From Alphaproteobacteria bacterium (GTDB lineage: Bacteria; Pseudomonadota; Alphaproteobacteria; UBA828): a stretch of DNA of 64,000 nt. The notes under the pieces are model-generated. The model was not told the origin of the DNA, did no database searches, and saw nothing but the letters and a program-made list of their open reading frames with translations. Position numbers and translations under genes: made by a program. The stretch covers positions 480,001-544,000 of the forward strand of contig CBDCRW010000006.1 in assembly GCA_965221125.1 (NCBI GenBank), read 5' to 3'. Below are positions 25,015-52,081 of this stretch, piece by piece. Each line of letters opens with the position of its first letter. The first letter of the stretch is position 1.

Positions 25015-25021
25015 GCCCCGC

Positions 25022-33669: not shown

Positions 33670-34440
33670 TCAGCCCGTGAATCCGAGCCGCCTGCCGAGG
33701 TCGGCCGCCGCTGCCGACAGCTTCTCCCTGATCCGCGTGCGCGCCACGGGACGGAAGCGGTCGGCGAGGCCGGTGATGCCGACGGAATAGAGGACGTAGC
33801 CGCCGTTCACGCGGATCGGGTGGCCGTAGCTGAGCACGCCGGCGTCGAGCTCGTTGTCGCAGACCGCCATGCCGTCGGCGCGAATCTGACCGAGCTCGTC
33901 GCGGATCTCCGCGTCGTCCACTCTGGTCTTCTCGGTGTAGCGCTCGCGCGGGCGCGCGAGATAGCGGGCGACGAACTCCTCGTCCTGAAACGCGAGGATC
34001 GCCTTGCCCGAGGCGGCCGCGTGCAGCGGCAGCTGCCGGCCCGGCTGCACGAAGGCGCGATCGGAGCCCGAAGGCTGCTCCATCAGCACGGACTCGGCGA
34101 AGTCGCCGTTGAGCCGGGCCAGATGCGCGGTCTCGCCGAACGCCGCCACCAGCTCGTCGAGAACCGGCTTGGCGAGCCCCGCATAGCCCGCGCGGTCCAT
34201 GCTCGCATGCAGGAGGGACTGCAGCCGGGGCCCGGTCACGTAGCTCTTGGTCCCGGGCGCACTCCGCAGCAGGTCGAGGTCCACGAGGCCCCGGATCAGG
34301 CGATGCACCGTCCCCGGTTGCAGCGCCAGCTCCCGCGCGATGTCCGTGAGCGTGAGCCCGGTGCGCGCGGCGGCCACCGTCTCGAGCACGCGGACGTAGC
34401 GCCCGAGTGGCTTGTCGTTGCTATCGGTGCTATCGGCCAT
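33670..34440 (-). CDS. IclR family transcriptional regulator
   Basis: N-terminal HTH (LTDIARELALQPGTVHR), LPLHAAASGKAILA effector domain. Confidence 0.92.
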   Translation of the reverse strand: MADSTDSNDKPLGRYVRVLETVAAARTGLTLTDIARELALQPGTVHRLIRGLVDLDLLRSAPGTKSYVTGPRLQSLLHASMDRAGYAGLAKPVLDELVAAFGETAHLARLNGDFAESVLMEQPSGSDRAFVQPGRQLPLHAAASGKAILAFQDEEFVARYLARPRERYTEKTRVDDAEIRDELGQIRADGMAVCDNELDAGVLSYGHPIRVNGGYVLYSVGITGLADRFRPVARTRIREKLSAAAADLGRRLGFTG

Positions 34441-34460
34441 CGTTCAGGGCGCTCCCGCCG

Positions 34461-36785
34461 TCATCGCGCGGCGGCGTGCTGCTGCAAGGCGCGGACCACG
34501 CGCTCCGGCGTGATCGGCATCTCGAAGACGCGCACGCCGATGGCGTCGGCGACGGCGTTGGCGATGGCGGGGGCCACGGCGGTCATGGCCGGCTCGCCGA
34601 TGCCCTTGGCGCCGAAGGGCCCGACCCCGCTGCGGGATTCGAGGACGATGCACTCGACGTTCGGCATGTCCATCGCCGTCGGCATCAGGTACTCGCTGAA
34701 CGACGGCGTGACCAGGCGGCCTTCCTCGTAGAGCATCTCCTCGCTGAGCGCGTAGCCTTGCCCGTTCTGCGCGCCGCCCTGGATCTGGCCTTCCACGGCG
34801 GACGGGTTGATGCACTGGCCGACGTCGTGGGCGGCGACGCTCTTCAGCACCTCGACCTCGCCGGTCTCCACGTCGACCGAGACCTCGACCGCGTGGGCGC
34901 CATAGGCGTAGTCGGGGTGGGCCTGGCCCTGGCCGGTCTCGGGATCCAGGAAGTCGCCGAAGGGCGCGCGGAAGATCGCGAGTTCCGAGCGGTGGATGCC
35001 CTCGGCCGCGCAGATGCGCACCAGATCGACCAGCGGCATGGTCTTCTCCGGCCGGTCGATGACGAAGACCTCGTTGAAGGCCATGTCGATCTCGTCCGGG
35101 GAGACGCCGAATTCCTGCGCCGCGCGTTCGGCGAGGCGGGCGCGAAGGCCCTCGGCCGCCTGCTTGGCGGCGTTGCCGGTCATGTAGAGCGCGCGCGTCG
35201 CCGTGGTGGTGCCGGCGAGCGGGGTGACGGCGGAATCGCTGTTGTAGGTGACCACGTTGTCGAGGGTGACGCCGAGCACCTCCACCGCGATCTGGCCCAG
35301 CGCCGAAATCTGGCCGGCGCCGATGTCAGTGACGCCGGAGCGCACCACGACGGTGCCGTCCATCTCGACGCCGACCCAGGCTTCCGAGGTGTCGTGCAGG
35401 AAGGTGAGGCGGCCGTAGCTCTGCTGATAGCAGGCGAGGCCGCGGCCGGTGCGGATCGGCCCCTCGGCTGGGGTGGGCGCGCCGAGGGCGGCCCAGGCCT
35501 GCTCCGCGCACTGCTCGGTCCAGATCGCGCTCGGCGGCACGAAGCCGGTGGACATGGGCTCGCCGGTCTTGAGGAAGTTGCGCCGGCGCACCTCCATCCG
35601 GTCGAGGCCGAGCGCGTTCGCGATCTCGTCCATCTGCTGCTCGTAGGCCGCGCAGGCCTGCAGCGCGCCGAAGCCGCGGAAGGCACTCGTGTACATGTTG
35701 TTGGTGGCGACGGCCTGGGCGAAGACGTTGAGGTTGTCGACACGGTAGGGGCCGGGGGCCGCGACCAGCGCGTAGAGGATGACGTAGGGGCTGAGGAAGA
35801 CGTAGGCGCCGGCGTCGGCGATCATCTTCACTTCGAGGGCTGTGATCTTGCCGTCCTTCGTGACGCCGGTGCGGTAGGTGAGGATGAACGGGTGGCGCTT
35901 GCCGTGGCCGACGAAGGAATCCTCGCGCGAGTATTCCAGCCGCACCGGCCGGCCGGTGTGCTTGGCCAGCAGCGCGAGGTAGACCTCGACGGTCAGGTCC
36001 TCCTTGCCGCCGAAGCCGCCGCCCACCAGCGCGCCCCGCACGCGGACCTTGTTGTGGGGCACGCCGATGGCGTCGGCGATGGGCCGAAAATGCTCGATCA
36101 CCTGGGTCGAGACGCGGATGTTCACCACGTCGTTCTCGTCCACCCAGGCGAGGCCCACCTCCGGCTCGAGGAAGGCGTGCTCCTGGAACGGGGTCTTGTA
36201 GGTGTGCTCGACGATCAGGTCGGCCACGCCGAAGCCGGCCTCGGCGTCGCCCTTCCTGATCCTGCGCTCGGCGACGATATTGTCCGAGCCGTAGACCAGA
36301 GGCGCGCCGGGCTTCAGCGCCTCCAGCGGGTCGTAGACGCCGGGGATCGGCTCCAGCTCGAACTCGATCAGCTCGGCCGCGTGGTCGGCGATGTCGCGGG
36401 TCTCGGCGGCGATCAGGGCCAGCGGCTCGCCGAAGTAGCGGACCCGGTCCTTCACCAGGATCGGCTGGTCGGTATCCAGCCTCTTGCGTCCGGTCTGGCC
36501 GGGGATGTCGGTGGCCGATGTGCGATCGGTGATGTCGGCGGCGGTCAGCACGCAGGCCACGCCCTTGAGCGCGCGCGCCCTGGAGACATCAAGGCGCACC
36601 AGACGGGCGCTCGCGATGTCGGCGCGGAGCACGCGCATGTGCAGCATGTTCGGCATCACGTAGTCGCCGGCATAGGGCGTGCGCCCCGTGACCTTGCCCG
36701 GCGCGTCGGTGCGGGTGAGCGGCTTGCCGATTTGCCGGTACTGGACGTTGGCCAGCGCGCCCGGATCGGTGTCGGTGTAGGTCAT
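34461..36785 (-). CDS. xanthine dehydrogenase-family molybdopterin-binding large subunit
   Basis: KVTG, QEHAFLEPE, VGGGFGGKED, SAFRGFG, GQIQGG, AKGIGE. Confidence 0.92.
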   Translation of the reverse strand: MTYTDTDPGALANVQYRQIGKPLTRTDAPGKVTGRTPYAGDYVMPNMLHMRVLRADIASARLVRLDVSRARALKGVACVLTAADITDRTSATDIPGQTGRKRLDTDQPILVKDRVRYFGEPLALIAAETRDIADHAAELIEFELEPIPGVYDPLEALKPGAPLVYGSDNIVAERRIRKGDAEAGFGVADLIVEHTYKTPFQEHAFLEPEVGLAWVDENDVVNIRVSTQVIEHFRPIADAIGVPHNKVRVRGALVGGGFGGKEDLTVEVYLALLAKHTGRPVRLEYSREDSFVGHGKRHPFILTYRTGVTKDGKITALEVKMIADAGAYVFLSPYVILYALVAAPGPYRVDNLNVFAQAVATNNMYTSAFRGFGALQACAAYEQQMDEIANALGLDRMEVRRRNFLKTGEPMSTGFVPPSAIWTEQCAEQAWAALGAPTPAEGPIRTGRGLACYQQSYGRLTFLHDTSEAWVGVEMDGTVVVRSGVTDIGAGQISALGQIAVEVLGVTLDNVVTYNSDSAVTPLAGTTTATRALYMTGNAAKQAAEGLRARLAERAAQEFGVSPDEIDMAFNEVFVIDRPEKTMPLVDLVRICAAEGIHRSELAIFRAPFGDFLDPETGQGQAHPDYAYGAHAVEVSVDVETGEVEVLKSVAAHDVGQCINPSAVEGQIQGGAQNGQGYALSEEMLYEEGRLVTPSFSEYLMPTAMDMPNVECIVLESRSGVGPFGAKGIGEPAMTAVAPAIANAVADAIGVRVFEMPITPERVVRALQQHAAAR

Positions 36786-37279
36786 GGTGCGCCTCCTCCG
36801 GCGCGCATGTCGCCGGCGGCGTCGGCGATTGCCTCGAAGATCTTGGTGTAGCCGGTGCAGCGGCAGAGATTGCCGCTCAGCCCCAAGCGAATGTCGTCCT
36901 CGCTTGGCTGCGGATGCTCGTCGATGATCGCCTTGGCCGCGATGATGATGCCGGGAATGCAGTAGCCGCACTGCGCGGCGCCGCCGTCGGCAAACGCTTT
37001 CTGCAGGGGATGCGGCGAATCCAGGTCGCCGAGGCCGGAGACGGTGGTGACCTCCTTGCCCGCCGCCATCCAGGCAAGGGTCAGGCAGCTGTCCACGGCC
37101 ATGCCGTCCAGCAGCACGGCGCAGGCGCCGCAGTCGCCCTTCTCGCAGCCGCACTTCACCTCCATGTGGCCGAGCTGGCGCAGCGCCTCCAGCAGCGTGC
37201 GGTGGGCGGGGAAGCGGCCTTCCTCCTCGCGGCCGTTGATGCGGAGCGTGATGGTTCTCGTCTCAGGCATGGGCGTCAC
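36782..37279 (-). CDS. XDH-family 2x[2Fe-2S] small subunit
   Basis: GCEKGDCGAC...SC; QCGYC...NLCRCTGY. Confidence 0.93.
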   Translation of the reverse strand: MTPMPETRTITLRINGREEEGRFPAHRTLLEALRQLGHMEVKCGCEKGDCGACAVLLDGMAVDSCLTLAWMAAGKEVTTVSGLGDLDSPHPLQKAFADGGAAQCGYCIPGIIIAAKAIIDEHPQPSEDDIRLGLSGNLCRCTGYTKIFEAIADAAGDMRAGGGAP

Positions 37280-38150
37280 TCCCTCGGGCCAGGCGGTTCC
37301 ACGCTTGCGTGACCAGGCGCCGGGTCAGGGCTTCCACCGTGTGGCGGCGGTAGCCGGCGGAGGCGCGGATGTCGTCGATGGGGCTGCATGTCTCCGCCGC
37401 CGCCGCCGCCGCCTCGTCGATGAGCGCGGGCGTGAGCGTCCGGCCCTCCAGCATCGCTTCCGCCTCCTTCACGCGGCGGACGTAGGGCGCGACGGAGGCA
37501 AGCGCGATCCGCGCCCTGGTGCAGGTGCCGTCCGCCACCGAGAGCGCCACCGCCACGCCGGTGACGGTGATCGCGTCGCCCTTGCGGCGCGCGAGCTTGT
37601 AGAAGGTGTCGGTGGAGTTCTCCGGCTGCTGCGGCCATGAGATGCGGGTGATCAGCTCGTCCGGCCGGCGCGCGTCCTCCTTGTAGCCGAGGTAGTAGTC
37701 GTCGAGCGCCAGCGTGCGCGTGCCGGACGCGCTGGCCAGCTCCAGCTCGGCGTCGAGCACGAGCAGCGGCGGCACGAGGTCGGCCGCCGGCGAGCCGCTG
37801 GCGATGTTGCCGGCGACCGTGCCCGTATTGCGCACCATCAGGCCGCCGAAGAGGCGCGCGGCGTCGATCAGCGACGGCGCCTCGCGCGCGATCTCGGGCG
37901 AGCGCAGCAGGTCGCTCACCGTGGTGCGGCTGCCGATGGCGATGCGCTCAGGACCGAAGGCCATGCCGAGCAGCGCGTCGACCTCGCCGAGGCCCACCAT
38001 CCGGTCGGGCCGCTCGCGCTTCGCGCGGATGTCGACGATGAGGTTCGTGCCGCCCGCGATGGGGAGCACGGTCTCGCCGGCCCCGTTCGCGAGCGCCGCC
38101 AGGGCGCCATCCAGGTCCGTCGGGATATCCAGTTCGAAGGGCGCGTACAT
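37263..38150 (-). CDS. XDH-family FAD-binding medium subunit
   Basis: IAGGTNL, RNTGTVAGN, SPAAD, PIDDIRASA.YR. Confidence 0.92.
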   Translation of the reverse strand: MYAPFELDIPTDLDGALAALANGAGETVLPIAGGTNLIVDIRAKRERPDRMVGLGEVDALLGMAFGPERIAIGSRTTVSDLLRSPEIAREAPSLIDAARLFGGLMVRNTGTVAGNIASGSPAADLVPPLLVLDAELELASASGTRTLALDDYYLGYKEDARRPDELITRISWPQQPENSTDTFYKLARRKGDAITVTGVAVALSVADGTCTRARIALASVAPYVRRVKEAEAMLEGRTLTPALIDEAAAAAAETCSPIDDIRASAGYRRHTVEALTRRLVTQAWNRLARGSDAHA

Positions 38151-38178
38151 ATCGCGATGTCTCCCGTCTCTGCCCGCG

Positions 38179-38961
38179 CTACACGTCCCAGCCGCCGTCG
38201 ACGGTGATGGCCTGGCCGGTGATCTGGCGGCTCTCCTCGCTCGCCATGAACAGCACGGCGTCGGCCACGTCCTGGCAGGTGGTGACGCGCTTCAAGCACA
38301 TCTCCTGAACGTACTCGTCGTACACCTCGTCGATGGTCCAGCCGCGCACGCGGGCCTTCTCCTCGCAGAGCTTCTGCATGCGGGGCGTCTCGACGATGCC
38401 GGGGCAGACCGCGTTGACGTTGACGTTGTACTTGCCGACCTCGAGCGCCACCGTGCGCGTGATCCCGCGCACCGCCCACTTGGACGCGCTGTAGGCGGTG
38501 CGCATGGCGTAGCCGCGCAGGCCCGACGTGCCGCCGATGTTGACGATCTTGCCGCTCCGCTGCGCGATCATGGTCGGCACCACGTACTTGATGGGCAGGA
38601 AGGTGCCGATCTCGTTGTTTCGGATGACGTAGTCGAAGTCGGCCACGTCGATGTCCTGCACAGGCGTCTCGATGGGGCCGGTGACGCCCGCGATGTTGAC
38701 CAGGATGTCGATGCGCCCGTCGAAGACCGCGCGCGCCTGCTCGACCATCGCCTTGACCTGCCCATCGTCGGTGACGTCGCAGCCCACGACATGGGCCGCC
38801 CGCCCCAGCGCACGCACGTCCGCCGCGACCGGGGCGAGCGCGTCCGTATCCCGCGCGGTCAGCACGACGTCCGCGCCCTCGCGCGCGAGCGTGGTCGTGA
38901 TCGCCGCGCCCATGCCCTTCGCCGCGCCGGTGACGATCGCCTTCTTGCCATCCACTCTCAC
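38179..38961 (-). CDS. short-chain dehydrogenase/reductase
   Basis: GTG start overlapping the upstream TGA; TGAAKGMG, YSASK, NAVCPG, ITVDGG. Confidence 0.9.
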   Translation of the reverse strand: MRVDGKKAIVTGAAKGMGAAITTTLAREGADVVLTARDTDALAPVAADVRALGRAAHVVGCDVTDDGQVKAMVEQARAVFDGRIDILVNIAGVTGPIETPVQDIDVADFDYVIRNNEIGTFLPIKYVVPTMIAQRSGKIVNIGGTSGLRGYAMRTAYSASKWAVRGITRTVALEVGKYNVNVNAVCPGIVETPRMQKLCEEKARVRGWTIDEVYDEYVQEMCLKRVTTCQDVADAVLFMASEESRQITGQAITVDGGWDV

Positions 38962-40574
38962 TGCATCGTTCCCTTGCTTGTTTGGCTCGTTGTCGCGGGC
39001 TCTCCGTAGCCGCCGCCGCCGCAGCTCTCGACGATCACCACGTCGTCCCTGCCGAGCCGCAGGTTGGCCTTGCCCGGCATGTCCTCGCGGCGGCCGTCGG
39101 CATGCGCGACGGTGACCCGGAAGGGCGCGCCGTCCTCGCCGCCCTGCAGGCCGTAGGGCGGCACCACGCGGCGCTCGAACATCGAGGTGACCGACATCTC
39201 GTCGGCGAGCACGCGGTATTCGCGGTGCAGGCCCTCGCCGCCCCGCCGGCGGCCGGCGCCGCCGGAGTCCGCGCGCAGGCGCTGGCACTCGATGCGGATG
39301 GGGAACTCGGCCTCCACCACCTCGGCCGGCGTGTTCATCACGTTGGACATGTGAACGCGCACCACCGGCGCGCCGTCGCGGTCGTGGCGTGCACCTTCGC
39401 CGCCGCCGTGGACCTCGTAGAGCGTGGTCCAGGCGCCGTCCGCGCGCCTTCCGCCGAAGAGCACGAGGCCGGACGTGGTCGGCCCGCCGGCGGAAATGCG
39501 CTCCGGCCCCACGGCCTCGAAGGCGCGGAACACGGCGTCGGCAATCCGCTGCGAGGTCTCGTGGTTGCCGCCCACCACGGGGCTTTCTGCAGACGGATCG
39601 AGCAGGGAGCCGGGGCGCGTCACGATCTCCAGCGGGCGGTAGCAGCCGCCGCTCGGCTGGATGTCGGGCCCGAACAGGGTCTTGACCACGTAGAAGACCG
39701 AGGCCGCGGCGATGAAGGGGGTGGTGTTCACGGGGCCCCGCGCGGCGTCCTCGGTCGCGGAGAAGTCGAAGCGCGCGCCGTCGCCGGCGATGGTGACGCG
39801 CACGCGCACGGCGACCGGCCCGCCGCCGCCGGCATCGTCGTCGAGCCAGTCCTCGCCCTCGTAGGTGCCGTCCGGAACGGCGGCGAGCGCCGCCCGCATT
39901 TGCGCCTCGGCCCGGTCGTGGATCGCGGCGACGGCGGCCAGCACCGTTTCCCGCCCGTGCTCGGCGCAGATGTGGTGGATGCGCTCCTCGGCGGCGCGGC
40001 TGGCCGCGACCTGCGCCAGGATGTCGCCCTCGCGCTCGTCCGCGCCCCGCACGTTGGCGCAGACCATGTCCAGCTTCTCGCGGTCGGGGCCGGAGGCGGT
40101 GAAGAGGCGGAAGGGCGGGATGCGCAGGCCCTCCTGCCAGGCGTCGGTGGCGCCGGCCACATAGCTGCCGGGCACCGCGCCGCCGATATCCGCCCAGTGG
40201 GCGAGGCTCGCGGCGAAGGCCACGATCCGGTCGTCCACGAAGATCGGGCGGATCGCTTTCACGTCCGGCAGGTGGTTGCCGCCCACCTCCGGCAGGTTCA
40301 GGAACCAGACGTCGCCGGGCTCCAGGCGGTCCCTGGGCACGCGCTTCAGGAACTCGCGGACGGTGAAGCTCATGACCCCCATGTGCATGGGGATGTCGCG
40401 GCCCTGGGCGATGAGGTGGCCGTCGGCATCGGTGAGCGCCGAGGAAAGATCGCCGGCCTCGCGCAGGAGCGGCGAGCGGGCCGAGCGCATGACCACGAGC
40501 GACATTTCCTCCGCCGTCGCCGTCAGCGCGTGGCGGATGACCTCCAGGGTGATCGGGTCGACGGTGCGGCTCAT
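38958..40574 (-). CDS. hydantoinase B/oxoprolinase family protein
   Basis: VDPITLE, ARSPLLREAGD, GGNHLPD, HWADIGG.VPGS, NTPAEVVE. Confidence 0.93.
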   Translation of the reverse strand: MSRTVDPITLEVIRHALTATAEEMSLVVMRSARSPLLREAGDLSSALTDADGHLIAQGRDIPMHMGVMSFTVREFLKRVPRDRLEPGDVWFLNLPEVGGNHLPDVKAIRPIFVDDRIVAFAASLAHWADIGGAVPGSYVAGATDAWQEGLRIPPFRLFTASGPDREKLDMVCANVRGADEREGDILAQVAASRAAEERIHHICAEHGRETVLAAVAAIHDRAEAQMRAALAAVPDGTYEGEDWLDDDAGGGGPVAVRVRVTIAGDGARFDFSATEDAARGPVNTTPFIAAASVFYVVKTLFGPDIQPSGGCYRPLEIVTRPGSLLDPSAESPVVGGNHETSQRIADAVFRAFEAVGPERISAGGPTTSGLVLFGGRRADGAWTTLYEVHGGGEGARHDRDGAPVVRVHMSNVMNTPAEVVEAEFPIRIECQRLRADSGGAGRRRGGEGLHREYRVLADEMSVTSMFERRVVPPYGLQGGEDGAPFRVTVAHADGRREDMPGKANLRLGRDDVVIVESCGGGGYGEPATTSQTSKGTMQ

Positions 40575-42586
40575 GGCGCGGCCCCGGTGGCGATGTGGAG
40601 GTGGCCGGCGTCGTCGGCCGTGAGCGTGGCACCCGGCGGCACGACCACGGTCGACCATTCATCGTCGACGATGACCGGCCCTTCCAGCGGCCAGTCGGCG
40701 CCCAGGGCGGCGCGGTCGTAGCGCGGCGTCGGCAGCGGCGCGCCGGTATCGAACGTGGCCGGCAGCGTGCGCGCAGGCGACGGCGGCTCGTTGGCCTTGG
40801 GCGCCGGAGCACGTGCCTCGCCGTTGCGGGGCGCGGAGACGCGCACGCGGATCGAGACCAGCTCCCACGGCTCCTCCGTGGCGAAGCCGTAGAGAGTCCG
40901 GTGGCGCTCCATGAAATCCCGGCCGAGCCGCGCGGGATCGTCGAAGGCGGGGGTCGCGATCTCGATGGCGTAGCTCTGGCCCCGGTAGCGGATCGAGGCG
41001 ACCTCCTCGACCGCCAGATTGCCGTTGCCGTGACCGGCCGCCCTGAGCGGCGCGGCGAGGGTCGCATGCAGCGCCCGCCGTGCCTGGTCCACGCGCGCAC
41101 CGTCCCACGCGTCCGACGCCACGCGGAGCGTGCGCTGCTGCGCGTAGCTCATCTCCGCGCCGACGCAACCCAGAGCCGAGAACATGCTGGAATGGGCGGG
41201 CACGACCACGTGCGCGATGGAGAAGGCGCGGGCCAGCGCCACCGCGTGCATGGGGCCGGCGCCGCCGAAGGCGAGCAGGGTGCACGCCCGCCCGTCGACG
41301 CCGCGCTCCACGGTGACGCGCCGCAGCGCGCGCAGCATGGCCGCGTTCGCCACCCTGACGACGCCCAAAGCCGCAGCCTCCGGCGTCATGTCCATGGCTG
41401 TGGCGAGCGGCGCGATCGCGTCACGGGCCGCGCCGGTATCGAGGTGCACGTTGCCGCCGAGGACGCGCCCCGCCTCCATGTAGCCCAGCACCAGGTTGGC
41501 GTCGGTCACGGTCGGCCGCGCGCCGCCCTTGCCGTAGCAGGCGGGGCCCGGCACCGCGCCGGCGCTCTCCGGCCCCACCGCAAGCGAGCCGTGATCGAGC
41601 CGGGCGATGGAGCCGCCGCCGGCGCCGATGGATTCCACCGCGACCATGGGCTGGCGTAGCGGCCGGCCGCCCAAGGAGCGGTCGGCGGAAATCTGCGCCT
41701 CGCCGTCCGCGATCAGGCAGACATCGGTGGTGGTGCCGCCCATGTCGAAGCTGATGGCGCGCTCGAGCCTAAGCGCGCGGGCCATGCTGCCAGCGGCGGC
41801 GACGCCGGCGGCAGGACCGGAGGCGGCGAGGCCCAAGGGAAGGTCGCGCAAGGCCTCGGGCGAAGCCATGCCGCCGGCGGAATGGAAGAGGTGCAGGCGG
41901 GAGTCTTCGGGCTTCGCGCTCTCCAGGTCGTCCATGTACGCGGCCGCGAGCGGCATGACGCCTGCGCTCAGCGCCGTGGTTGCCGTCCGCTCGTACTCGC
42001 GGGCCTCGGGATTGACCCGGTGCGAGAGGGCGACGAAGGGGAAGCGCTCGCCGAGCCGGGCGCCCAGCGCCTCCTCGTGCGCGGGATTGGCGTAGGAATG
42101 GAGCAGCGAGACGGCCACCGCCTCCGCGCCGCTCGCCTCGATGCGGGCGATGGCGTCCTCCACCGAGGCCGGGTCCAGCGCGGCCATGACCCTGCCGTCG
42201 TGGTCGAGCCGCTCGCTCACCTCGAAGCGGCGCTCGGGCGGCACCTGGGGTGCCAGCTTGGGCGCGAGATCGAGCCGGTAGAGGTGGCGGCGGTTCTGGC
42301 GCCCGATGGCGAGCGTGTCTGCGAAGCCGCGCGTCGCGATCAGGGCGACCTTCGCGTGGTCGTCCTGGACGATGGCATTGGTGACGATGGTGGTGCCGTG
42401 GATCAGGTCGTCCACGTCGGCCCACGCGAGATCCACCGCGCCGAGCGCAGACAGCAGGCCGGTGATGCGGTCGTCGGTGCGGGAGGGAACCTTCGCGGCC
42501 CGCACCTCGCCGCGCGCCCGGTGCACGGCGATCACGTCGGTGAACGTGCCACCCACATCGATACCGACTTGCCATCCATGCGGCAT
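40571..42586 (-). CDS. hydantoinase A/oxoprolinase family protein (ATP-binding)
   Basis: IDVGGTFTD, HGTT, SGPAAG, DMGGTTTD, GAGGGSIA, AFGGAG. Confidence 0.94.
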   Translation of the reverse strand: MPHGWQVGIDVGGTFTDVIAVHRARGEVRAAKVPSRTDDRITGLLSALGAVDLAWADVDDLIHGTTIVTNAIVQDDHAKVALIATRGFADTLAIGRQNRRHLYRLDLAPKLAPQVPPERRFEVSERLDHDGRVMAALDPASVEDAIARIEASGAEAVAVSLLHSYANPAHEEALGARLGERFPFVALSHRVNPEAREYERTATTALSAGVMPLAAAYMDDLESAKPEDSRLHLFHSAGGMASPEALRDLPLGLAASGPAAGVAAAGSMARALRLERAISFDMGGTTTDVCLIADGEAQISADRSLGGRPLRQPMVAVESIGAGGGSIARLDHGSLAVGPESAGAVPGPACYGKGGARPTVTDANLVLGYMEAGRVLGGNVHLDTGAARDAIAPLATAMDMTPEAAALGVVRVANAAMLRALRRVTVERGVDGRACTLLAFGGAGPMHAVALARAFSIAHVVVPAHSSMFSALGCVGAEMSYAQQRTLRVASDAWDGARVDQARRALHATLAAPLRAAGHGNGNLAVEEVASIRYRGQSYAIEIATPAFDDPARLGRDFMERHRTLYGFATEEPWELVSIRVRVSAPRNGEARAPAPKANEPPSPARTLPATFDTGAPLPTPRYDRAALGADWPLEGPVIVDDEWSTVVVPPGATLTADDAGHLHIATGAAP

Positions 42587-42605
42587 GGCACGGCCTCAAT
42601 TCTCG

Positions 42606-42629
42606 GTTATCGAAAATAGTTTCGATAAC
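42606..42629. promoter_or_regulatory. perfect operator-like palindrome upstream of the operon
   Basis: GTTATCGAAA-ATAG-TTTCGATAAC, about 20 nt upstream of the hydantoinase A start; minus-strand TTGACA at 42660-42665. Confidence 0.7.
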
Positions 42630-42816
42630 TCGATAACGATGCGCCCGCGCGGCGGCGCCTGTCAACATTAAATCGGGCTGTTCCTGGCGGATCGAACGCT
42701 TGGGTGCGACACAGGCCGTGACCCTGGTGAGAATTGCGGGCTGACGACGGCAAAAATACACTGTGCGGCGGCGGTCGCGCGTCAGGCGGCCGGCTCCCGC
42801 ATGGCGAGGGATGGGG

Positions 42817-43833
42817 ATGACCTGGCTCGACGACAGCGCGTGGCGCTACTTCTGGCACCCGGTCTGCACGCTCGTGGAACTCGACGCGGCCGCCGCCGAG
42901 AGCCGGCCGCTCGCGGTCACGCTGCTCGGCGAGCCGCTCGCCGTCGCCCGGATCGCCGGCACCGTCGCCGCCTTCCCGGACCGCTGCATCCATCGCTCGA
43001 CCCGTCTCACGGTGGGCTGCGTGGAGACGGGCGGGCTGCGCTGCGCCTACCACGGCTGGCTCTACGATGCGGACGGCGCGTGCGTCGAAATCCCCGCCAT
43101 GCCGGACTTCACGATCCCGCCGAGCTTCCGGCTGCGCAGGATCGAGGCGGAGATGGCCTACGACCTCGTCTGGCTGCGCCTCGAGGCGGGCGCCGGGACG
43201 CGCATTCCCGGATGCCCGGCCTGGAGCGACGACGCCTTCCGCTGCGTCCAGGGCGAGCCCTACATCTGGCCGACATCGGCCGGGCGCCGGCTGGAGAATT
43301 TCGTCGACCTCGCGCACTTCCCGTTTGTCCACGACGGCTCGCTCGGCGACCGCCGGCACGCGACCGTGCCGATCGCGGACGTCGCCCGCGTCGGCGGCGA
43401 GCTGCGCTTCCGCTTCGAGCCGGAGCCGGACATGGCGCTGCCCGACGTCGCCCTGATGGCGCCGACGGACTACCGCCTCTGGATGCCGTTCACGGTCAAC
43501 CTGGAATTCGCCTTCGCGGACGGCGAGCGCGGCCAGCTCTGGATGGCGGCGTCGCCGGTCGAGTCCGGGACCTGCCGCAGCTTCTGGTTCACGAGCCGCA
43601 CCGCCGACAGGGACGGCGACGACCGCCCGCACCTCGATTTCCAGGATCTCGTGCTGGGCGAGGACCTCCCGGTGATCGAGGCGCAGGAGCCGCCGGAGAT
43701 TCCGGGTCCGGGCGGCGAGAAGTCCGTGCCGACCGACGCGGTCTCGCTGGCCTATCGCCGCTGGCTGCGCGAGCTCTCCGCCGCCGCCGGGAAGGGGGCT
43801 GCGGCGGTGGCACGGAGTCTGTCCTCCGAATAG
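42817..43833 (+). CDS. Rieske non-heme iron oxygenase alpha subunit (O/N-demethylase-like)
   Basis: CIHR...CAYHGW Rieske motif; ENFVDLAHFPFVH and ED mononuclear iron ligands. Confidence 0.9.
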   Translation: MTWLDDSAWRYFWHPVCTLVELDAAAAESRPLAVTLLGEPLAVARIAGTVAAFPDRCIHRSTRLTVGCVETGGLRCAYHGWLYDADGACVEIPAMPDFTIPPSFRLRRIEAEMAYDLVWLRLEAGAGTRIPGCPAWSDDAFRCVQGEPYIWPTSAGRRLENFVDLAHFPFVHDGSLGDRRHATVPIADVARVGGELRFRFEPEPDMALPDVALMAPTDYRLWMPFTVNLEFAFADGERGQLWMAASPVESGTCRSFWFTSRTADRDGDDRPHLDFQDLVLGEDLPVIEAQEPPEIPGPGGEKSVPTDAVSLAYRRWLRELSAAAGKGAAAVARSLSSE

Positions 43834-44220
43834 CGGCCTCGGGAGCGACTTTTTCTTATCCCTCAATCGGCGGGCGCTCGCTCCGCTCGCTTGCCTACGC
43901 GCCTTCGGCGCGCGGCGCGGTCGCGCCGTCCGGGCCTGCGGCCCGGGCGAAACCGGGCGGCTCTTCATGTCACGCCCGCGAGCTTTCAGGCGCGGGCGAC
44001 GCACCATGGTGCGGTGGAAGGCGGGGGCGGAGCGGGGCAGTCTCGGTGGATGCGGTGTGTGGACCATGAGCTCGGCGACGTGCGAAGACGCCGTCAGCGC
44101 GGCCTGTCGGCGCATGAAAGCGCGGGATGCGGAGGACGAATCAGGCCGGCGGGACCCTCGGCGCGAGGGGGACGCGCGGCCGGGTGGCGGCCCTGGACGG
44201 GCCAGCTTGGGCCATCATGC

Positions 44221-44334
44221 GCCACCTTGTGCCACCTTGTGCCACCTTGTGCCACCTTGTGCCACTTTGTGCCACTTTGTGCCACTTTGTGCCGCTCGTT
44301 TTGTGCCACCTTGTCCCACTTTGTGCCACTTTGT
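44221..44334 (+). repeat. 10-bp tandem repeat array GCCAC(C/T)TTGT
   Basis: 4x GCCACCTTGT, 3x GCCACTTTGT, one 14-nt degenerate unit, then 3 more units. Confidence 0.95.
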
Positions 44335-44376
44335 GCCGGCGTATGCCGGAATATGCCGGGTTAAGGCCTTTGTCGC

Positions 44377-45096
44377 TCACGGCAGCCGGTCGTCCTGCGA
44401 TTCCGCCGCCCTGTTCGTGCGCTCCAGGTGCTTGAGCGCCTCGCGCCGGCTGAGCGCGGAGAGCCCGGCGTGGCGTCGGACGAACGCCGTCACCCACTCC
44501 GGGTCGGTCTTGGAATACTCGCGGAGCGCCCAGCCGATGCCCTTGCGCAGGAAGAATTCCGGCTCGCCGATGGAGGGGCGGATTACATCGGCCAGAAGCT
44601 CGGTGTCCGTCGCCTCCCTGGCCCGGAGCTGGGCGAGGATCGCGGTCCGCCGCTTCCAGATGTCGCCGTCATGCGCCCAGTCGCGCAACACCGCCTTCAT
44701 CGGGCGTGGATGGGCGGCGAGCATGGCGCCGACGCCGCGCCCGGCAATCGCGTCCACGTAGTCCCACCAGGCGCCGGTCACCACCAGCTCCTCGACCAGC
44801 GGAAGCCTCGCGGGCTCGAGCCAGCGCGCGTAAGCGCCGAAGAGCAGAAGCTCGACCGCCGCGTAGCGTTCCTCCCGGTGGGCGGCGTTGCGCCAGAGGT
44901 CGAGAATTGCCGCCTCCCAGGTACCGGCGTCCGGCAGCGGGTGCGCCCTGAACACGGAACCCGCGATGCGCCGGCACTGCGGCACGCCCACGCCGAAGAA
45001 GGGTATGGCGGACTTCATGTACGCCTGCTGCTGCGGCGCCCTGGCCGGATCGGCGGCCTTGCGCAGGGCGGCTATGACGGCCCCTCGAACGGTCAT
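44377..45096 (-). CDS. DNA alkylation repair protein (AlkD-like HEAT-repeat glycosylase family)
   Basis: AYMK...FFGV, REERY, WWDYVD, WKRR, EFFLRKGIGWALREYSK, LSRREA. Confidence 0.9.
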   Translation of the reverse strand: MTVRGAVIAALRKAADPARAPQQQAYMKSAIPFFGVGVPQCRRIAGSVFRAHPLPDAGTWEAAILDLWRNAAHREERYAAVELLLFGAYARWLEPARLPLVEELVVTGAWWDYVDAIAGRGVGAMLAAHPRPMKAVLRDWAHDGDIWKRRTAILAQLRAREATDTELLADVIRPSIGEPEFFLRKGIGWALREYSKTDPEWVTAFVRRHAGLSALSRREALKHLERTNRAAESQDDRLP

Positions 45097-45269
45097 CGCA
45101 AATCCTGGCCGACCCGGCGACGGCGGGCAACCCGAGCCGGCGGCAGCGCGCAACGTTGCCTGGGCGGGCGAGGCGCACTAGCGTCTGCGCGCCGACCCGG
45201 GCTCGTGGGCGAATGCGGCTTCGGGCGTCGGCGCGAGCGAATCGAGGGAAAGAGGACGGAGCGAGGTCA

Positions 45270-46271
45270 ATGGAGAAGCTACGCGTCGGCGTGATCGGGG
45301 TCGGCTGGTTCGGGACGGTGCATTGCCGGGTCATCGCCGGCCATCCCGAGCTTGAGCTTTCTGCGCTTTGCGACGCGTCGGAAGAGCGCCTCGCGGAGAT
45401 GGCGCGCGAGCACGGCGTGGCCCGCACGTGTGCGGACTATCGCGAGCTCGCGGAAGACCCGGCGATCGACATTCTCGCCGTCATCACGCCCTGGGACCAC
45501 CACGCCGCGCCCACGCTCGCGGGGCTCGCGGCCGGCAAGCACGTCCTGGTCGAGAAGCCGATGGCATCGACGGTGGAGGAATGCCGGCGCATGTGCGATG
45601 CCGCGCGCGAGGCGGACGCCTTCCTGATGGTGGGTCACGTCTGCCGCTTCAACCCGCGCTACGTCTCGGCCAAGCGCGAGATCGACGCGGGCCGGATCGG
45701 CAAGGTGGTGGCGATCAACGCCCGGCGCAACGTGCCGGCGCGGTGGGTCATCGAGCAACTCGAGAGCATCGGCCCCATCCTGCACACGTGCTCGCACGAC
45801 ACGGACCTGATGCGCTGGCTCACCGGCTCGCACGTCGTGAGCACCTACGCGCAGACGGTCAACACGCTGGGACAGGCGTACGACGACCTGTCTCATGTGA
45901 TGTATCGCTTCGAGAGCGGCGCGACCGCGATGTACGAAGGCGCCTGGTGCATGCCGGACACCTCGCCCTTCGAGCTCGACGAGCGCATGTCGGTGATCGG
46001 CACCGAGGGCTTCATCCAGATTCAGGACACCTTCCCCAACATCGGCGTGGCCTCGAAAGAGGGTTTTTTGAGCCCCGACACGAGCTACTGGCCGGAGCTG
46101 CACGGCGTCACCGGCGGCGCGCTCAGGGACGAATGGTCGTACTTCGCCCGCTGCATCGCAGACGGCACGGCGCCTTCGGTCATCAGGCCGGAGGAGGCGA
46201 TGGAGGTCGTGCGGACCGTGCTGGCTGCGCATGAATCGGCGACTACCGGCAGAGTGGTGACGGTTGCCTGA
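45270..46271 (+). CDS. Gfo/Idh/MocA family oxidoreductase
   Basis: GVIGVGWFG, HVLVEKPMA, RFNP, HDTD. Confidence 0.9.
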   Translation: MEKLRVGVIGVGWFGTVHCRVIAGHPELELSALCDASEERLAEMAREHGVARTCADYRELAEDPAIDILAVITPWDHHAAPTLAGLAAGKHVLVEKPMASTVEECRRMCDAAREADAFLMVGHVCRFNPRYVSAKREIDAGRIGKVVAINARRNVPARWVIEQLESIGPILHTCSHDTDLMRWLTGSHVVSTYAQTVNTLGQAYDDLSHVMYRFESGATAMYEGAWCMPDTSPFELDERMSVIGTEGFIQIQDTFPNIGVASKEGFLSPDTSYWPELHGVTGGALRDEWSYFARCIADGTAPSVIRPEEAMEVVRTVLAAHESATTGRVVTVA

Positions 46272-46277
46272 TGCGGG

Positions 46278-47195
46278 CTAAGTCTCCGCTTGCGCCGCCG
46301 GCTGGCGGCGGGCCGCGTGGATCAGGAGCGCAACGCCCGCCAGCATCAGCACGGCGGCGGCCCAGACGTAGGCGCTGTGGCGCTCGCTGAAGAAGAGGAT
46401 GCCCCAGCCGAGGCCCGCCACGACGACGACGTAGTTGAACTGCGAGAAGAACACCGGGCCGGCCGCGCGCACGATGATCAGGAACGTGATGTACATGGTG
46501 ATGGTGACGCCGGCGGCGCCGAGGATCGCGAGGTCGGCGACGGTGTCCGGCCCCGGCACCACGTAGGTCTCGCCCAGCCCGAGCATCACCGGGGCCAGCA
46601 TGATGGCCGCTGCCGTCACGATGCCGCTCGCAAACGTCAGCACCGGCGTTTCCGGCGGGTCGATCAGGGCGGCGAGGTTGTTGGTGAGCGCAAAGCAGGC
46701 CGGTGCAAGCAGGGCGAGCAGGAACCAGCCCACCATGCCGGGCTCCGGCAGGGAGAACGTGGGGATCGTCATCAGCAGGATGCCGCCCACCCCGCACAGC
46801 ACGCCGATCAGGCTGAGCGCGCGTATCCGCTCCAGCCGGAGCGTGAGCGCGATCAGGTAGGTGATCGGGGGCGACAGGATCACCACCATGGAGAGGATGC
46901 CGGTCGGCAGCTTCGGCGCGAGCCAGGTCATGAGCGCGACAGGTGCTGCGATGCCAAACAGCCCGATCACGAAATAGGCCGTGAGGTGCCGGGCTTCCAG
47001 CCGCGGGAGCGCGCGCCGCCAGGCTGCGAGGATCAGCAGCAGGACCGCGGCGCCGAGGGTCTGCCAGAAGGTGAAGGCGAGCGGCGGCGTTCCGGCCTCC
47101 ACCGCGATCTTGTTCATGGTGAAGATGAGCGGATAGACCGCCCCGATCGTGAACAGCAGGAAGATCGGGAGGGAAAGCGGCCCGCGGCGCCCCAT
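46278..47195 (-). CDS. DMT/EamA family transporter
   Basis: About 10 TM segments; AGPVFFSQFNY, FFSE. Confidence 0.85.
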   Translation of the reverse strand: MGRRGPLSLPIFLLFTIGAVYPLIFTMNKIAVEAGTPPLAFTFWQTLGAAVLLLILAAWRRALPRLEARHLTAYFVIGLFGIAAPVALMTWLAPKLPTGILSMVVILSPPITYLIALTLRLERIRALSLIGVLCGVGGILLMTIPTFSLPEPGMVGWFLLALLAPACFALTNNLAALIDPPETPVLTFASGIVTAAAIMLAPVMLGLGETYVVPGPDTVADLAILGAAGVTITMYITFLIIVRAAGPVFFSQFNYVVVVAGLGWGILFFSERHSAYVWAAAVLMLAGVALLIHAARRQPAAQAET

Positions 47196-47223
47196 CGGGC
47201 TTGAAGGCTAGGGGGTTACAGGA

Positions 47224-48027
47224 CTATTGGGCCGCTGCGCCCGCGGTGTGCTCGGTTCCCACCAGGAGGCAGTCGTCGCCGAGCGGCTCGACCGGCATGA
47301 AGTCCCGGTGCGCGATGTACTCCGGCCGCTGGAAGCGCTGGATCGCGTTGTCCACCCGGTTGGCCGAGAAATAGACCGCGCGCCGCCCCCAGGGCGACAT
47401 GTTGGGCGCAGAGCCGTGCACCAAGTTGCAGTGGAAGAACAGCGCAGCGCCGGGCTCGCCCTTGGGCGCGACGATCCCGCCCTCCGCCACCAGCGTCTCG
47501 ATGGTCTCGTTGTCGATCGTCCAGAGCGGATAGCTCGTGGTCTCGAGGTCGTGGCCGGCCTCGATCCGCCCGCGCCGGTGCGAGCGGGGAATGAACATCA
47601 GCGGGCCGTTGAACTCGTTCACCGGGTCGAGGTAGACGGCGAGGTTCATGGCATGGGGCTCGGGCATCAGGTCGTCGCGTGACCAGGTGCCGTAGTCCTG
47701 GTGCCACTGCCAGACGTCGCCGTCGAAGGCGGCCTTGGCGTTCACCTTGAACTGGTGGATGTAGACGGGCCCGCCGAGGACCTGCATCGCGGGCTCCACC
47801 AGGCGCGGGTGGCGCGAGAGACGCCAGTAGATGTCGCTGTAGGTGTGGACGCCGAAGGCGGTGCGCACGGCGCCGTTGTGCTCGCGCACGATCTCCGGCC
47901 CCGTGCGCGCGAAGATCGCCGGCAGCGCCGCGCGGAGCACCGCGGTCTCCTCGGCCGAGAAAAGATCCGGCAGGAAGAGATAACCCTCGCGGTCCAGGGT
48001 CTCGTACTGTTCGGCCGTGAGCTTCAT
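47224..48027 (-). CDS. PhyH-family 2OG-Fe(II) dioxygenase, EctD/proline-hydroxylase-like
   Basis: YIHQFKVNAK, WQWHQDYGTW (HxD), NGPLMFIPRSH, HGS..N...RR. Confidence 0.85.
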   Translation of the reverse strand: MKLTAEQYETLDREGYLFLPDLFSAEETAVLRAALPAIFARTGPEIVREHNGAVRTAFGVHTYSDIYWRLSRHPRLVEPAMQVLGGPVYIHQFKVNAKAAFDGDVWQWHQDYGTWSRDDLMPEPHAMNLAVYLDPVNEFNGPLMFIPRSHRRGRIEAGHDLETTSYPLWTIDNETIETLVAEGGIVAPKGEPGAALFFHCNLVHGSAPNMSPWGRRAVYFSANRVDNAIQRFQRPEYIAHRDFMPVEPLGDDCLLVGTEHTAGAAAQ

Positions 48028-48081
48028 GGGCCGCTCCCCTCTATGCCTTGCACGCAAATTGCGCCGACAGCGGCGGGTGCG

Positions 48082-49020
48082 TCAAGACGCCGGATCGGAT
48101 GCGTCGTCCCTCGGGGCGGACGGTCGGTTGACGAGAAAGAGGCCGGCGAGCATGAGAACCAGCGCCAGCCAGATCCAATGGCTGTGACTCTCGCCGAAGA
48201 AGAGCACGCCCCAGCCGATGCCGGTCAGCGGGATCATGAAGTTGACGGTGGTGAAGAAGACGGGGCCCGCGAGGCGGATGATCTCGATCATCAGGTAGAA
48301 GACCAGCGCCATGGTTCCCGCCGCAGCGGCCAGCGCCCAGTCGCCGGCCGTCATCGGCCCCTCGAACCACCACCATTGATCGCTCGCCGCCATCACGACG
48401 AACATGAAGAGGGCGCCGGTCGTGAGAACGCCGCCGGCCAGCGGCAGCGCGCCGGCGGGCGGCGGCCTGAGCCAGGCGATGATCAGCGCGTTCGCGACAT
48501 AGAGCACGGGGCCGACGAAGCTCAGCAGCACCCAGGGGGCCATGTCGGGGCTGGGAAGGCTTGTCTCCGGCACCACCACCAGCGCGACGCCGCCGACGCC
48601 GAGGACCAGGCCTACGGTGCGGATCGCGCGGAAGCGGTCCATGCGAAACAGCGCGGCCGCCGGGTACGTAAGGATGGGTGTGAGCGTCGCGCCGAGCCCA
48701 AGCACGCCGGCCGGCACCTTGGGCGCGACGAAGGCCAGTATCGTGTAGGTCATGCCGAAGGAGATCGTGCCGAGCGCGAGGTAGCCCCGCACATGCTCCC
48801 ACGAGAGCCCGGGCAGCGTGCGGAACGCCGCCCCGAGCCCCAGCAGGATGAGCGCGGCGCCGGTGCCCATCCAGAACACGTAGGGGATGAAGGGGATGCC
48901 GTCAGTGGTCGCGAGCCGGTTGAGCGAATAGAGGGTGCCCCAGCCGAGAGCCGAGACCACCAGCAGGGCCGCCGGCCAGAGGAGCGCGTTGGCGCCGGCG
49001 CGCCGTGCGGGCTCCGTCAC
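48082..49020 (-). CDS. DMT/EamA family transporter
   Basis: About 10 TM segments; similar to 46278-47195 (APK.P.G, AGPVFF, GWG.LFF.E). Confidence 0.85.
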   Translation of the reverse strand: MTEPARRAGANALLWPAALLVVSALGWGTLYSLNRLATTDGIPFIPYVFWMGTGAALILLGLGAAFRTLPGLSWEHVRGYLALGTISFGMTYTILAFVAPKVPAGVLGLGATLTPILTYPAAALFRMDRFRAIRTVGLVLGVGGVALVVVPETSLPSPDMAPWVLLSFVGPVLYVANALIIAWLRPPPAGALPLAGGVLTTGALFMFVVMAASDQWWWFEGPMTAGDWALAAAAGTMALVFYLMIEIIRLAGPVFFTTVNFMIPLTGIGWGVLFFGESHSHWIWLALVLMLAGLFLVNRPSAPRDDASDPAS

Positions 49021-49036
49021 GCGCGATCCTCCGGCG

Positions 49037-51031: not shown

Positions 51032-51165
51032 CGCGCTCACCATTGGGGTTTCGGCCGCAAGCCGGCGGCGCGCGCCGCTCAAGGCTTGGCCGGCAACGAT
51101 AGCACCAACTGCCCCCACAGGTTTTCGTGGACATCGCCGCGCCGGCATGACATCAGGCACGCACC

Positions 51166-52077: not shown

Positions 52078-52081
52078 GACC

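Follow-up and report, generated by a model that had tools for sequence, protein, structure and literature searches.

A hydantoinase and molybdenum hydroxylase cassette chained to histidine decarboxylase, PotABCD importer and histamine dehydrogenase-type genes in a sponge-associated alphaproteobacterium

An operon of 13 chained genes

The minus strand of a 64-kb stretch of DNA from an alphaproteobacterium of the UBA828 lineage (the window; contig CBDCRW010000006.1, positions 480,001 to 544,000) carries 13 chained genes between positions 42586 and 26569, a span of 16,018 bp delimited by Pfam and start-codon analysis. Since the window is about 70% G+C, genes were called from third-position G+C together with Pfam. 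In reading order they encode HyuA and HyuB, which together form a two-subunit hydantoinase-type enzyme; a short-chain dehydrogenase (SDR); the FAD, [2Fe-2S] (FeS) and molybdenum (Mo) subunits of a hydroxylase; an IclR-family regulator; HdcA, of the pyruvoyl histidine decarboxylase family; the importer components PotA, PotB, PotC and PotD; and an orthologue of histamine dehydrogenase (HDH) (Table 1). We refer to the first six genes, hyuAB-SDR-FAD-FeS-Mo, as the cassette, and consider here what it might do beside the amine genes. A first-pass annotation had proposed that it opens the imidazole ring downstream of histamine; the gene families that it named at 33670-42586 on this strand are all present.

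Start-codon analysis places ATGA overlaps at hyuA/hyuB and FeS/Mo, a GTGA overlap at hyuB/SDR and an overlap of 8 nt at FAD/FeS (17 nt if the GTG start is used), and the remaining gaps of the first half are 28 nt (SDR-FAD), 20 nt (Mo-IclR) and 12 nt (IclR-hdcA), so that the eight genes from hyuA to hdcA are joined, as first described, by overlaps or by gaps below 30 nt. In the second half potA and potB overlap by 1 nt, and gaps of 1 nt and 29 nt separate potB from potC and potD from the HDH gene. The description of a single unit of about 16 kb that takes in the histamine genes likewise holds, though the hdcA-potA and potC-potD gaps are 37 and 39 nt. The chain is bounded upstream by a divergent plus-strand gene (42763-43833, Rieske/VanA_C) and downstream by a convergent gene (25007-26566). 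In a consensus scan of the operon region no minus-strand terminator fell between genes; shuffled sequence would give 4.9 terminator-like sites where two occur, each strand having one, and both sites lie within coding sequence. Contigs from two RNA-library runs of relatives (X19, X20), which cover the operon in part, were set aside as evidence of transcription because contigs cannot show strand or co-transcription.

Gene content and organisation being directly observed, their best explanation is that the 13 genes would be read as one transcription unit assembled from three pieces: the cassette with its IclR gene; the PotABCD importer with HDH, an amine-uptake and oxidation module; and the gene for the pyruvoyl histidine decarboxylase.

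Table 1. Positions of the operon genes and of the upstream palindrome in the window.
Feature	Position	Strand	Product length	Description and evidence
Palindrome	42606-42629	.		Perfect, AT-rich palindrome (GTTATCGAAA-N4-TTTCGATAAC) that precedes hyuA by 20 nt; candidate operator
hyuA	42586-40571	-	671 aa	Hydantoinase_A 267.7 bits, Hydant_A_N 175.1 bits (Pfam)
hyuB	40574-38958	-	538 aa	Hydantoinase_B 599.5 bits (Pfam)
SDR	38961-38179	-	260 aa	Short-chain dehydrogenase; adh_short_C2, adh_short (Pfam)
FAD subunit	38150-37263	-	295 aa	Mo hydroxylase; FAD_binding_5, CO_deh_flav_C (Pfam)
[2Fe-2S] subunit	37279 (GTG) or 37270 (ATG)-36782	-	162-165 aa	Fer2, Fer2_2 (Pfam)
Mo subunit	36785-34461	-	774 aa	Molybdopterin-binding large subunit; Ald_Xan_dh_C, MoCoBD_1/2 (Pfam)
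IclR	34440-33670	-	256 aa	IclR-family regulator, mid-operon; HTH_IclR, IclR_C (Pfam)
hdcA	33657-32713	-	314 aa	Pyruvoyl histidine-decarboxylase-family proenzyme; PF02329 157.3 bits
potA	32675-31587	-		ABC importer (Pfam)
potB	31587-30661	-		ABC importer (Pfam)
potC	30659-29838	-		ABC importer (Pfam)
potD	29798-28761	-		ABC importer (Pfam)
HDH orthologue	28731-26569	-	720 aa	Trimethylamine-dehydrogenase family (PDB comparison)

The palindrome upstream of hyuA is followed directly by a third half-site (42630-42637) and stands out as AT-rich in a surrounding genome of 70% G+C. Its core recurs at the same position in six related loci (L001-L004, L006, L007), has degenerate versions in two more (L009 and L082) and finds no match among the other 180 loci scanned. 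On this pattern it is perhaps the operator of the in-operon IclR protein, homologues of which (42-49% identity) adjoin the cassette in 10 loci of other lineages. An operator common to these lineages was considered and rejected, the exact core being confined to the genus and other lineages having different AT-rich repeats upstream of hyuA. When 42570-42660 is compared with four relatives (L001, L002, L009, L082), the window proves to have some 50 nt less leader between palindrome and hyuA, and the relatives retain a CCCGGCATCCGGAGGCAG stretch before the hyuA start codon.

Protein families and active-site residues

HyuA combines Hydant_A_N and Hydantoinase_A in one subunit and HyuB supplies Hydantoinase_B from the adjacent gene, which places the pair in the HyuA/HyuB superfamily. 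Within it they score below the caprolactamase equivalogs NF050156 and NF050157 (cut-off 1000): HyuA, whose best NCBIfam match is the caprolactamase subunit CapA, reaches 432.7 bits and HyuB 268.7 bits. In the PDB the closest matches are N-methylhydantoinase 7hk5 (365 bits for HyuA, 223 for HyuB) and caprolactamase (6yra_A, 345 bits for HyuA; 6yra_B, 225.6 bits for HyuB). Caprolactamase, N-methylhydantoinase and OplBA of Pseudomonas putida share this two-subunit architecture; they differ in that their descriptions include no linked Mo hydroxylase and SDR, and the window proteins score far below the cut-offs. Passages of one report have OplBA-type enzymes of P. putida hydrolysing valero- and caprolactam (10.1101/2021.12.09.472016). 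The nearest named relatives of the SDR are 3-hydroxybutyrate dehydrogenases, below their cut-offs, and a more specific identity was sought and dropped because PDB and NCBIfam gave only generic matches of this kind. No cassette protein reaches an NCBIfam equivalog cut-off.

The FAD, Fer2/Fer2_2 and Ald_Xan_dh_C/MoCoBD subunits make up a Mo hydroxylase of the xanthine dehydrogenase family, complete with the glutamate of its GIGEP motif: K727-G-I-G-E731-P is invariant among 8 orthologues, and E731 is presumably the catalytic base, as in the family. The enzyme falls short of xanthine dehydrogenase proper (528.8 against 783.65 bits for pucD, 494.3 against 780 for XdhA). Its Mo subunit has as nearest solved relatives the split nicotinate dehydrogenase 3hrd (298.6 + 212.1 bits) and 4-hydroxybenzoyl-CoA reductase (354 bits), and scores only 194 bits against the aldehyde oxidoreductase PaoC. 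By these scores N-heterocycle hydroxylases, among them nicotinate dehydrogenase and PucD, are closer to it than aldehyde oxidoreductases of the PaoC kind. Scoring of 8,000 candidates gave 2,598 proteins matching the Mo subunit at E <=1e-150, and a tblastn search of 72,556 plasmids found nothing better than 37% identity.

HdcA has the features of a pyruvoyl histidine decarboxylase, namely the PF02329 domain, a Ser-Ser cleavage site and the pocket residues. The cleavage site of 1hq6/1pya (S81-S82) has its counterpart in S90-S91-F92, the Lactobacillus 30a beta chain contains the same IVSYDRAE segment, and K159, F191 and E193 align with the alpha chain; we take these residues to act as they do in the Lactobacillus enzyme. 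With 154.9 bits against a cut-off of 346.65 it lies outside the equivalog TIGR00541. Judged from the alignment, HdcA belongs to a divergent subfamily of these decarboxylases, yet conserves the substrate pocket of the solved enzyme, which favours histamine in this genus.

The four Pot components form a polyamine-type importer. PotA passes the subfamily TIGR01187 (373.3 against 355.6 bits), and PotB, PotC and PotD are the best NCBIfam matches of their genes, yet remain under their equivalog cut-offs. The last gene product matches the histamine dehydrogenases 3k30 (888 bits) and 6de6 (877 bits) well ahead of trimethylamine dehydrogenase (542 bits), and its C60, Q90, E104, W293 and D384 align with C35, Q65, E79, W267 and D358 of 3k30, the signature residues, including the cysteine of the flavin mononucleotide link, whose roles we assume to be those of the histamine dehydrogenase structure. 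Full-length likeness and signature mark it as a genuine orthologue, at the level of sequence, of the solved histamine dehydrogenases, from which it differs in being embedded in a 13-gene operon and in having close orthologues elsewhere that adjoin agmatinase or N-carbamoylputrescine amidase (AguB). The Nocardioides histamine dehydrogenase is said also to oxidise agmatine and putrescine.

Occurrence of the cassette and its partner genes

Within the genus the order from hyuA to hdcA is kept in all seven related loci that reach far enough upstream, at 83-97% protein identity. Two loci (L001 and L007) have the arrangement of the window, two (L005 and L006) run into contig ends, and four of the seven read past potD (L002, L003, L004, L009) end there without HDH, a 73%-identical copy lying elsewhere beside putA and amidase genes. 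The position of hdcA is one of two: the window, L001-L007 and L009 have it between IclR and potA, and L008 has it downstream of HDH instead of ahead of potA. It is missing from the operon of genome G003 (L082), which retains HDH. Whole-genome searches of 18 members of the genus recovered the Mo orthologue in 15, hdcA in 13 and HDH (at least 73% identity) in 16, and the Mo orthologues adjoin pot genes wherever read. Since hdcA and HDH vary within the genus, the invariant core is hyuAB-SDR-FAD-FeS-Mo-IclR-potABCD, with hdcA and HDH as accessories. Urocanase (PF01175) was found neither in G000 nor in 15 of the 18 genus genomes (not found in 16 of 19 in all); it is present in G003, which has no hdcA, and G006 and G007 carry both genes. 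The gap in most of the genus favours the histamine reading.

To survey hdcA, 22 HdcA homologues were aligned and one genome per species was scanned with 10-kb flanks, returning 80 loci, which were searched by tblastn with the 13 window proteins. The block accompanies hdcA only in nine close relatives (HdcA 83-96% identity); the other 71 loci (HdcA 34-45% identity; 38 of at least 20 kb) contain no hyuA, hyuB, FAD, FeS, Mo, IclR or HDH gene. One of these homologues, 43% identical, lies in a low-G+C alphaproteobacterial metagenome-assembled genome (L011, 8510-19423) beside genes for DUF1028, an M20 deacylase, a PuuC-like aldehyde dehydrogenase, a class-III aminotransferase and a pot-like importer, surroundings in which a pyruvoyl decarboxylase might likewise take part in catabolism. 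In a Rhodobacterales/Roseibium set (L014, L017, L020) the context is unrelated to amine catabolism: a large BTAD/AAA_16 regulator flanks the hdcA homologue in all three, and a transglutaminase-like (TGL) gene precedes it in L017 and L020.

The cassette itself is far more widespread. Among 400 other genomes of the class, HyuB occurs at 66-78% identity in 12, of which one was not among the loci read; five (G127, G290, G152, G187, G120) carry the complete six genes, in two loci the contig stops after the SDR gene, four have hyuAB only, and G187 also has a variant with a distant Mo enzyme. A metagenome scan built on an alignment of 8 Mo orthologues returned 80 loci, about 21 with hyuB, SDR or hyuA beside FAD-FeS-Mo. 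Across both samples the unit holds together at 62-84% identity for Mo and 64-82% for HyuB, the SDR being conserved at 60-82% in other lineages; a separate metagenome group without hyuAB and SDR stands at 56-63% for Mo and mostly 37-45% for FAD (to 52% in a few). The hyuAB-SDR-FAD-FeS-Mo unit, usually with an IclR gene nearby, is a self-contained, conserved and mobile cassette.

Its partners elsewhere are seldom those of the window. The class-sample loci read contain no hdcA, HDH or close pot system in cis, hdcA occurs in none of the 80 metagenome loci and HDH in two of them (L113, L114), leaving the rest of the roughly 21 cassettes without a histamine gene in cis. At genome level the cassette and HDH-like genes do co-occur (4/5 against 28/395, Fisher 1.6e-4), an association that we do not treat as strong evidence, as the G127, G290 and G187 proteins have no HDH signature and G127 and G290 belong to the same genus. 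Liv-type ABC importers stand beside the cassette in five loci (L087, L088, L110, L116, L127); DMGDH/MABO-like genes adjoin it, or genes of it, in L081, L093 (hyuAB-SDR), L096 and L129; creatinase/DoeA-like M24 hydrolases occur in L093 and L127; and an M20 amidohydrolase directly follows the cassette in L130, together with a pyridoxal phosphate (PLP) enzyme. An aldehyde dehydrogenase gene lies between the SDR and FAD genes in L116 and L171, in L171 with a class-III aminotransferase, and genes of the same kind accompany hyuAB alone in L095. A histamine funnel shared by L011 and L171 was considered for these enzymes; they are only 37% and 36% identical, so no specific link can be drawn. In L081 (G021:C19 3660-17001) FAD-FeS-Mo occurs at 63%, 63% and 75% identity without hyuAB or SDR, followed by a DUF3237 gene and a DMGDH-like gene, with a Rieske oxygenase and an OYE/TMADH-like reductase opposite.

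HDH with its full signature reappears in two other settings. In L113 and L114, which share one arrangement, the cassette is followed by agmatinase (465 bits against a cut-off of 302) and then HDH, with gaps below 20 nt (Mo 72%, HDH 65% identity to the window). In a genome of about 2 Mb, G125 (L105, G125:C56 1572-10981), a PuuC-like aldehyde dehydrogenase, potABCD (53-59% identity), HDH (62%) and AguB (419.8 bits against 410.25) form a compact cluster, which suggests that HDH-signature enzymes there serve putrescine or agmatine catabolism. The potABCD-HDH group is, then, a second, separate module. Because the signature is present beside putrescine-forming enzymes, it cannot separate histamine from diamine substrates, and the 'histamine' half of the operon may be, or derive from, a polyamine module. 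A carbamoyltransferase near HDH in L104 was examined as a putrescine carbamoyltransferase and discarded; it is an aspartate carbamoyltransferase (409.7 against 263) on the other strand.

Possible pathways and genomic surroundings

The P. putida hin pathway degrades histamine by an aminotransferase, an aldehyde dehydrogenase, an imidazoleacetate monooxygenase and hydrolases, and we know of no bacterial histamine breakdown described other than with an O2-dependent ring monooxygenase. As the first-pass annotation had maintained, the operon is unlike this pathway: Pfam assigns none of the 13 genes to an aldehyde dehydrogenase, an aminotransferase (class III included) or a monooxygenase (flavin-dependent included), the rest of the genome not having been searched for these enzymes. 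Within the operon the cassette is therefore alone as a candidate for the reactions that follow HDH. We tentatively favour the possibility that it acts there, the Mo enzyme oxidising an aldehyde or an imidazole C-H and HyuAB opening the resulting cyclic amide. Histamine would be imported, or produced from histidine by HdcA, and converted by HDH to imidazole-4-acetaldehyde; the Mo enzyme, using water and not O2, would oxidise the aldehyde carbon, a ring C-H beside nitrogen, or both, the product being a cyclic amide of imidazolone or hydantoin type; the SDR could adjust the oxidation state of the hydroxylated intermediate; and HyuAB would open the ring at the cost of ATP, yielding an N-carbamoyl- or N-formimino-aspartate-type compound. 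Every substrate here, the order of the steps and the role of the SDR are conjecture from gene content. The proposed route would share with hin its start, the imidazole-acetaldehyde intermediate and a presumed aspartate end product, and would differ in deamination by an Fe-S flavoprotein dehydrogenase and in ring chemistry that is a candidate for O2 independence. Its logic is that of known N-heterocycle pathways, in which a Mo hydroxylase acts beside nitrogen and the cyclic amide so formed is hydrolysed. Nicotinate dehydrogenase 3hrd and PucD-type xanthine dehydrogenase have the same architecture of FAD, 2Fe-2S and Mo subunits; the ring opener of those pathways is a metal amidohydrolase and that of the window the ATP-dependent HyuAB.

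Several observations support this order of events. The tight chaining of 13 genes behind one intergenic region with a conserved palindrome speaks for a joint pathway. G125 has an aldehyde dehydrogenase with the HDH module and no cassette, whereas the window and L113/L114 have the cassette and no aldehyde dehydrogenase, and that the cassette stands where G125 has this enzyme suggests that it acts after HDH, as does the joining of HDH to the cassette twice independently, in the genus of the window and in L113/L114. The M20 amidohydrolase of L130 is as expected downstream of a hydantoinase, the nearness of the Mo subunit to N-heterocycle hydroxylases agrees with ring oxidation, and the HdcA pocket, the HDH residues, the keeping of hdcA at two operon positions and the urocanase gap point to histamine in the genus. 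Much, however, weighs against it. Apart from nine close relatives, hdcA loci are without the block, and hdcA and HDH are variable accessories even within the genus, HDH being missing from more than half of the operons read past potD and hdcA from that of G003. The first-pass annotation had expected the block to be conserved with hdcA and HDH and had itself named usual occurrence without histamine genes as an outcome that would count against imidazole ring opening, and this is what the homologues show: all five class cassettes, and all but two of about 21 in metagenomes, occur without them, and the genome-level co-occurrence does little to offset this. What stands of that proposal is the operon, the HDH and HdcA residues and the urocanase gap. 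HDH-signature orthologues adjoin agmatinase or AguB, and the importer is polyamine-type. The best named match of HyuA is a hydrolase of simple lactams; imidazolone rings are normally opened without ATP, by HutI; the SDR has no assigned step; and as the L116 and L171 cassettes carry their own aldehyde dehydrogenase, the Mo enzyme is not simply an aldehyde oxidiser. In other lineages the accessory genes agree with a generic scheme of cyclic amide formation by the Mo enzyme and opening by HyuAB, and the aminotransferase and aldehyde dehydrogenase pair, the MABO-like DMGDH genes and the caprolactamase likeness fit simple or N-methyl lactams better than imidazoles. That generic logic, under which the Mo enzyme would generate a carbonyl at a C=N or aldehyde carbon before ring opening by an ATP-dependent amidohydrolase, is more secure than the assignment to imidazoles.

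The main competing explanation is a diamine lactam shunt. PotABCD would import putrescine or a related di- or polyamine, HDH would form an amino-aldehyde present mainly as the cyclic imine (delta-1-pyrroline or piperideine), the Mo enzyme would convert it to a lactam, and caprolactamase-like HyuAB would spend ATP to release gamma-aminobutyrate (GABA) or 5-aminovalerate. Mammalian members of the Mo hydroxylase family do oxidise cyclic iminium ions to lactams. The importer with its PotA above the polyamine subfamily cut-off, the HDH module of G125 flanked by a PuuC-like aldehyde dehydrogenase and AguB, the agmatinase of L113/L114 (like AguB, an enzyme that forms putrescine) and the top match of HyuA all agree with it. 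Caprolactam catabolism proceeds after lactam opening by aminotransferase and aldehyde dehydrogenase steps, which the genes in L171, L116 and, with hyuAB alone, L095 match, and the DMGDH/MABO-like neighbours (L081, L093, L096, L129) fit N-methyl lactams. We nevertheless think it rather unlikely: HdcA retains its histidine-binding pocket, the same end can be reached at no cost in ATP by an ordinary aldehyde dehydrogenase, as G125 illustrates, the Mo subunit resembles heteroaromatic hydroxylases more than it does aldehyde or iminium oxidases, a gene for amine oxidation is lacking in cis from most cassettes, and the SDR is again left without a task. The halves of the operon might, alternatively, be metabolically unrelated, the cassette degrading some other imported N-heterocycle, cyclic amide or urea, for instance a ring abundant in the host that is N-methylated or derived from a guanidino compound, and the fusion reflecting only shared regulation or nitrogen scavenging. 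A cassette with its own IclR gene is self-contained, mostly occurs alone or beside Liv-type importers, DMGDH-like enzymes and M24 hydrolases, and has FAD-FeS-Mo relatives without hyuAB amid methylamine-type genes in G021; the surroundings of the operon, too, are rich in demethylation-type genes (a Rieske oxygenase, a second TMADH-like gene, PhyH and a reductase). Such independence is unlikely in our estimate, since the two halves are joined by overlaps and gaps of 12-37 nt behind one promoter region, the fusion persists throughout the genus (15 of 18 genomes carry a Mo orthologue), HDH became linked to the cassette on a separate occasion in L113/L114, and the amine half would be left with no enzyme of its own for the aldehyde.

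If the histamine route were correct, its water- and ATP-driven chemistry would explain histidine and histamine use by microaerobic, host-associated bacteria and add a new type of imidazole reaction. A broader proposal, on the doubtful side in our judgement, is that the genus, which mostly has no urocanase (Hut) route, breaks down histidine and histamine by steps that need no O2, the Mo hydroxylase with the SDR giving hydantoin- or imidazolone-acetate and HyuAB then giving N-carbamoyl- or N-formimino-aspartate, and that the cassette is a widespread, undescribed unit, taking C=N to a cyclic amide and on to ring opening, which is plugged into different amine or heterocycle funnels according to lineage. 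A full-text literature search, with subscription-journal papers on HDH and hin outside it, found no description of the cassette or of HDH with a hydantoinase. Whatever its substrate, the cassette is abundant and conserved across several alphaproteobacterial families, and assigning that substrate would annotate many genomes together.

The bacterium is sponge-associated. Runs labelled as sponge metagenomes, from several studies, contain 27-39% of the sampled words of the stretch, and pieces in run X5 show few differences from it. For other sponge symbionts, passages of one report infer histamine synthesis through PLP-type decarboxylases (PMC10570526).

Beside the operon, 42763-53080 holds a run of demethylation type that comprises the divergent Rieske/VanA_C oxygenase, a PhyH gene (47224-48057), two EamA transporters, a second gene of the trimethylamine dehydrogenase (TMADH) family (49037-51160) and a Fer2/FAD/NAD reductase (52082-53080). 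This second gene does not have the HDH signature, carrying T, P, G, Y and R at the five positions. In a neighbouring family of the same order (G019-G023), the amine dehydrogenases have undergone a striking expansion, with 12 to 28 TMADH/HDH-family matches per genome, some in tandem arrays such as G021:C14:81815-90473 and G022:C12:1318812-1387050.

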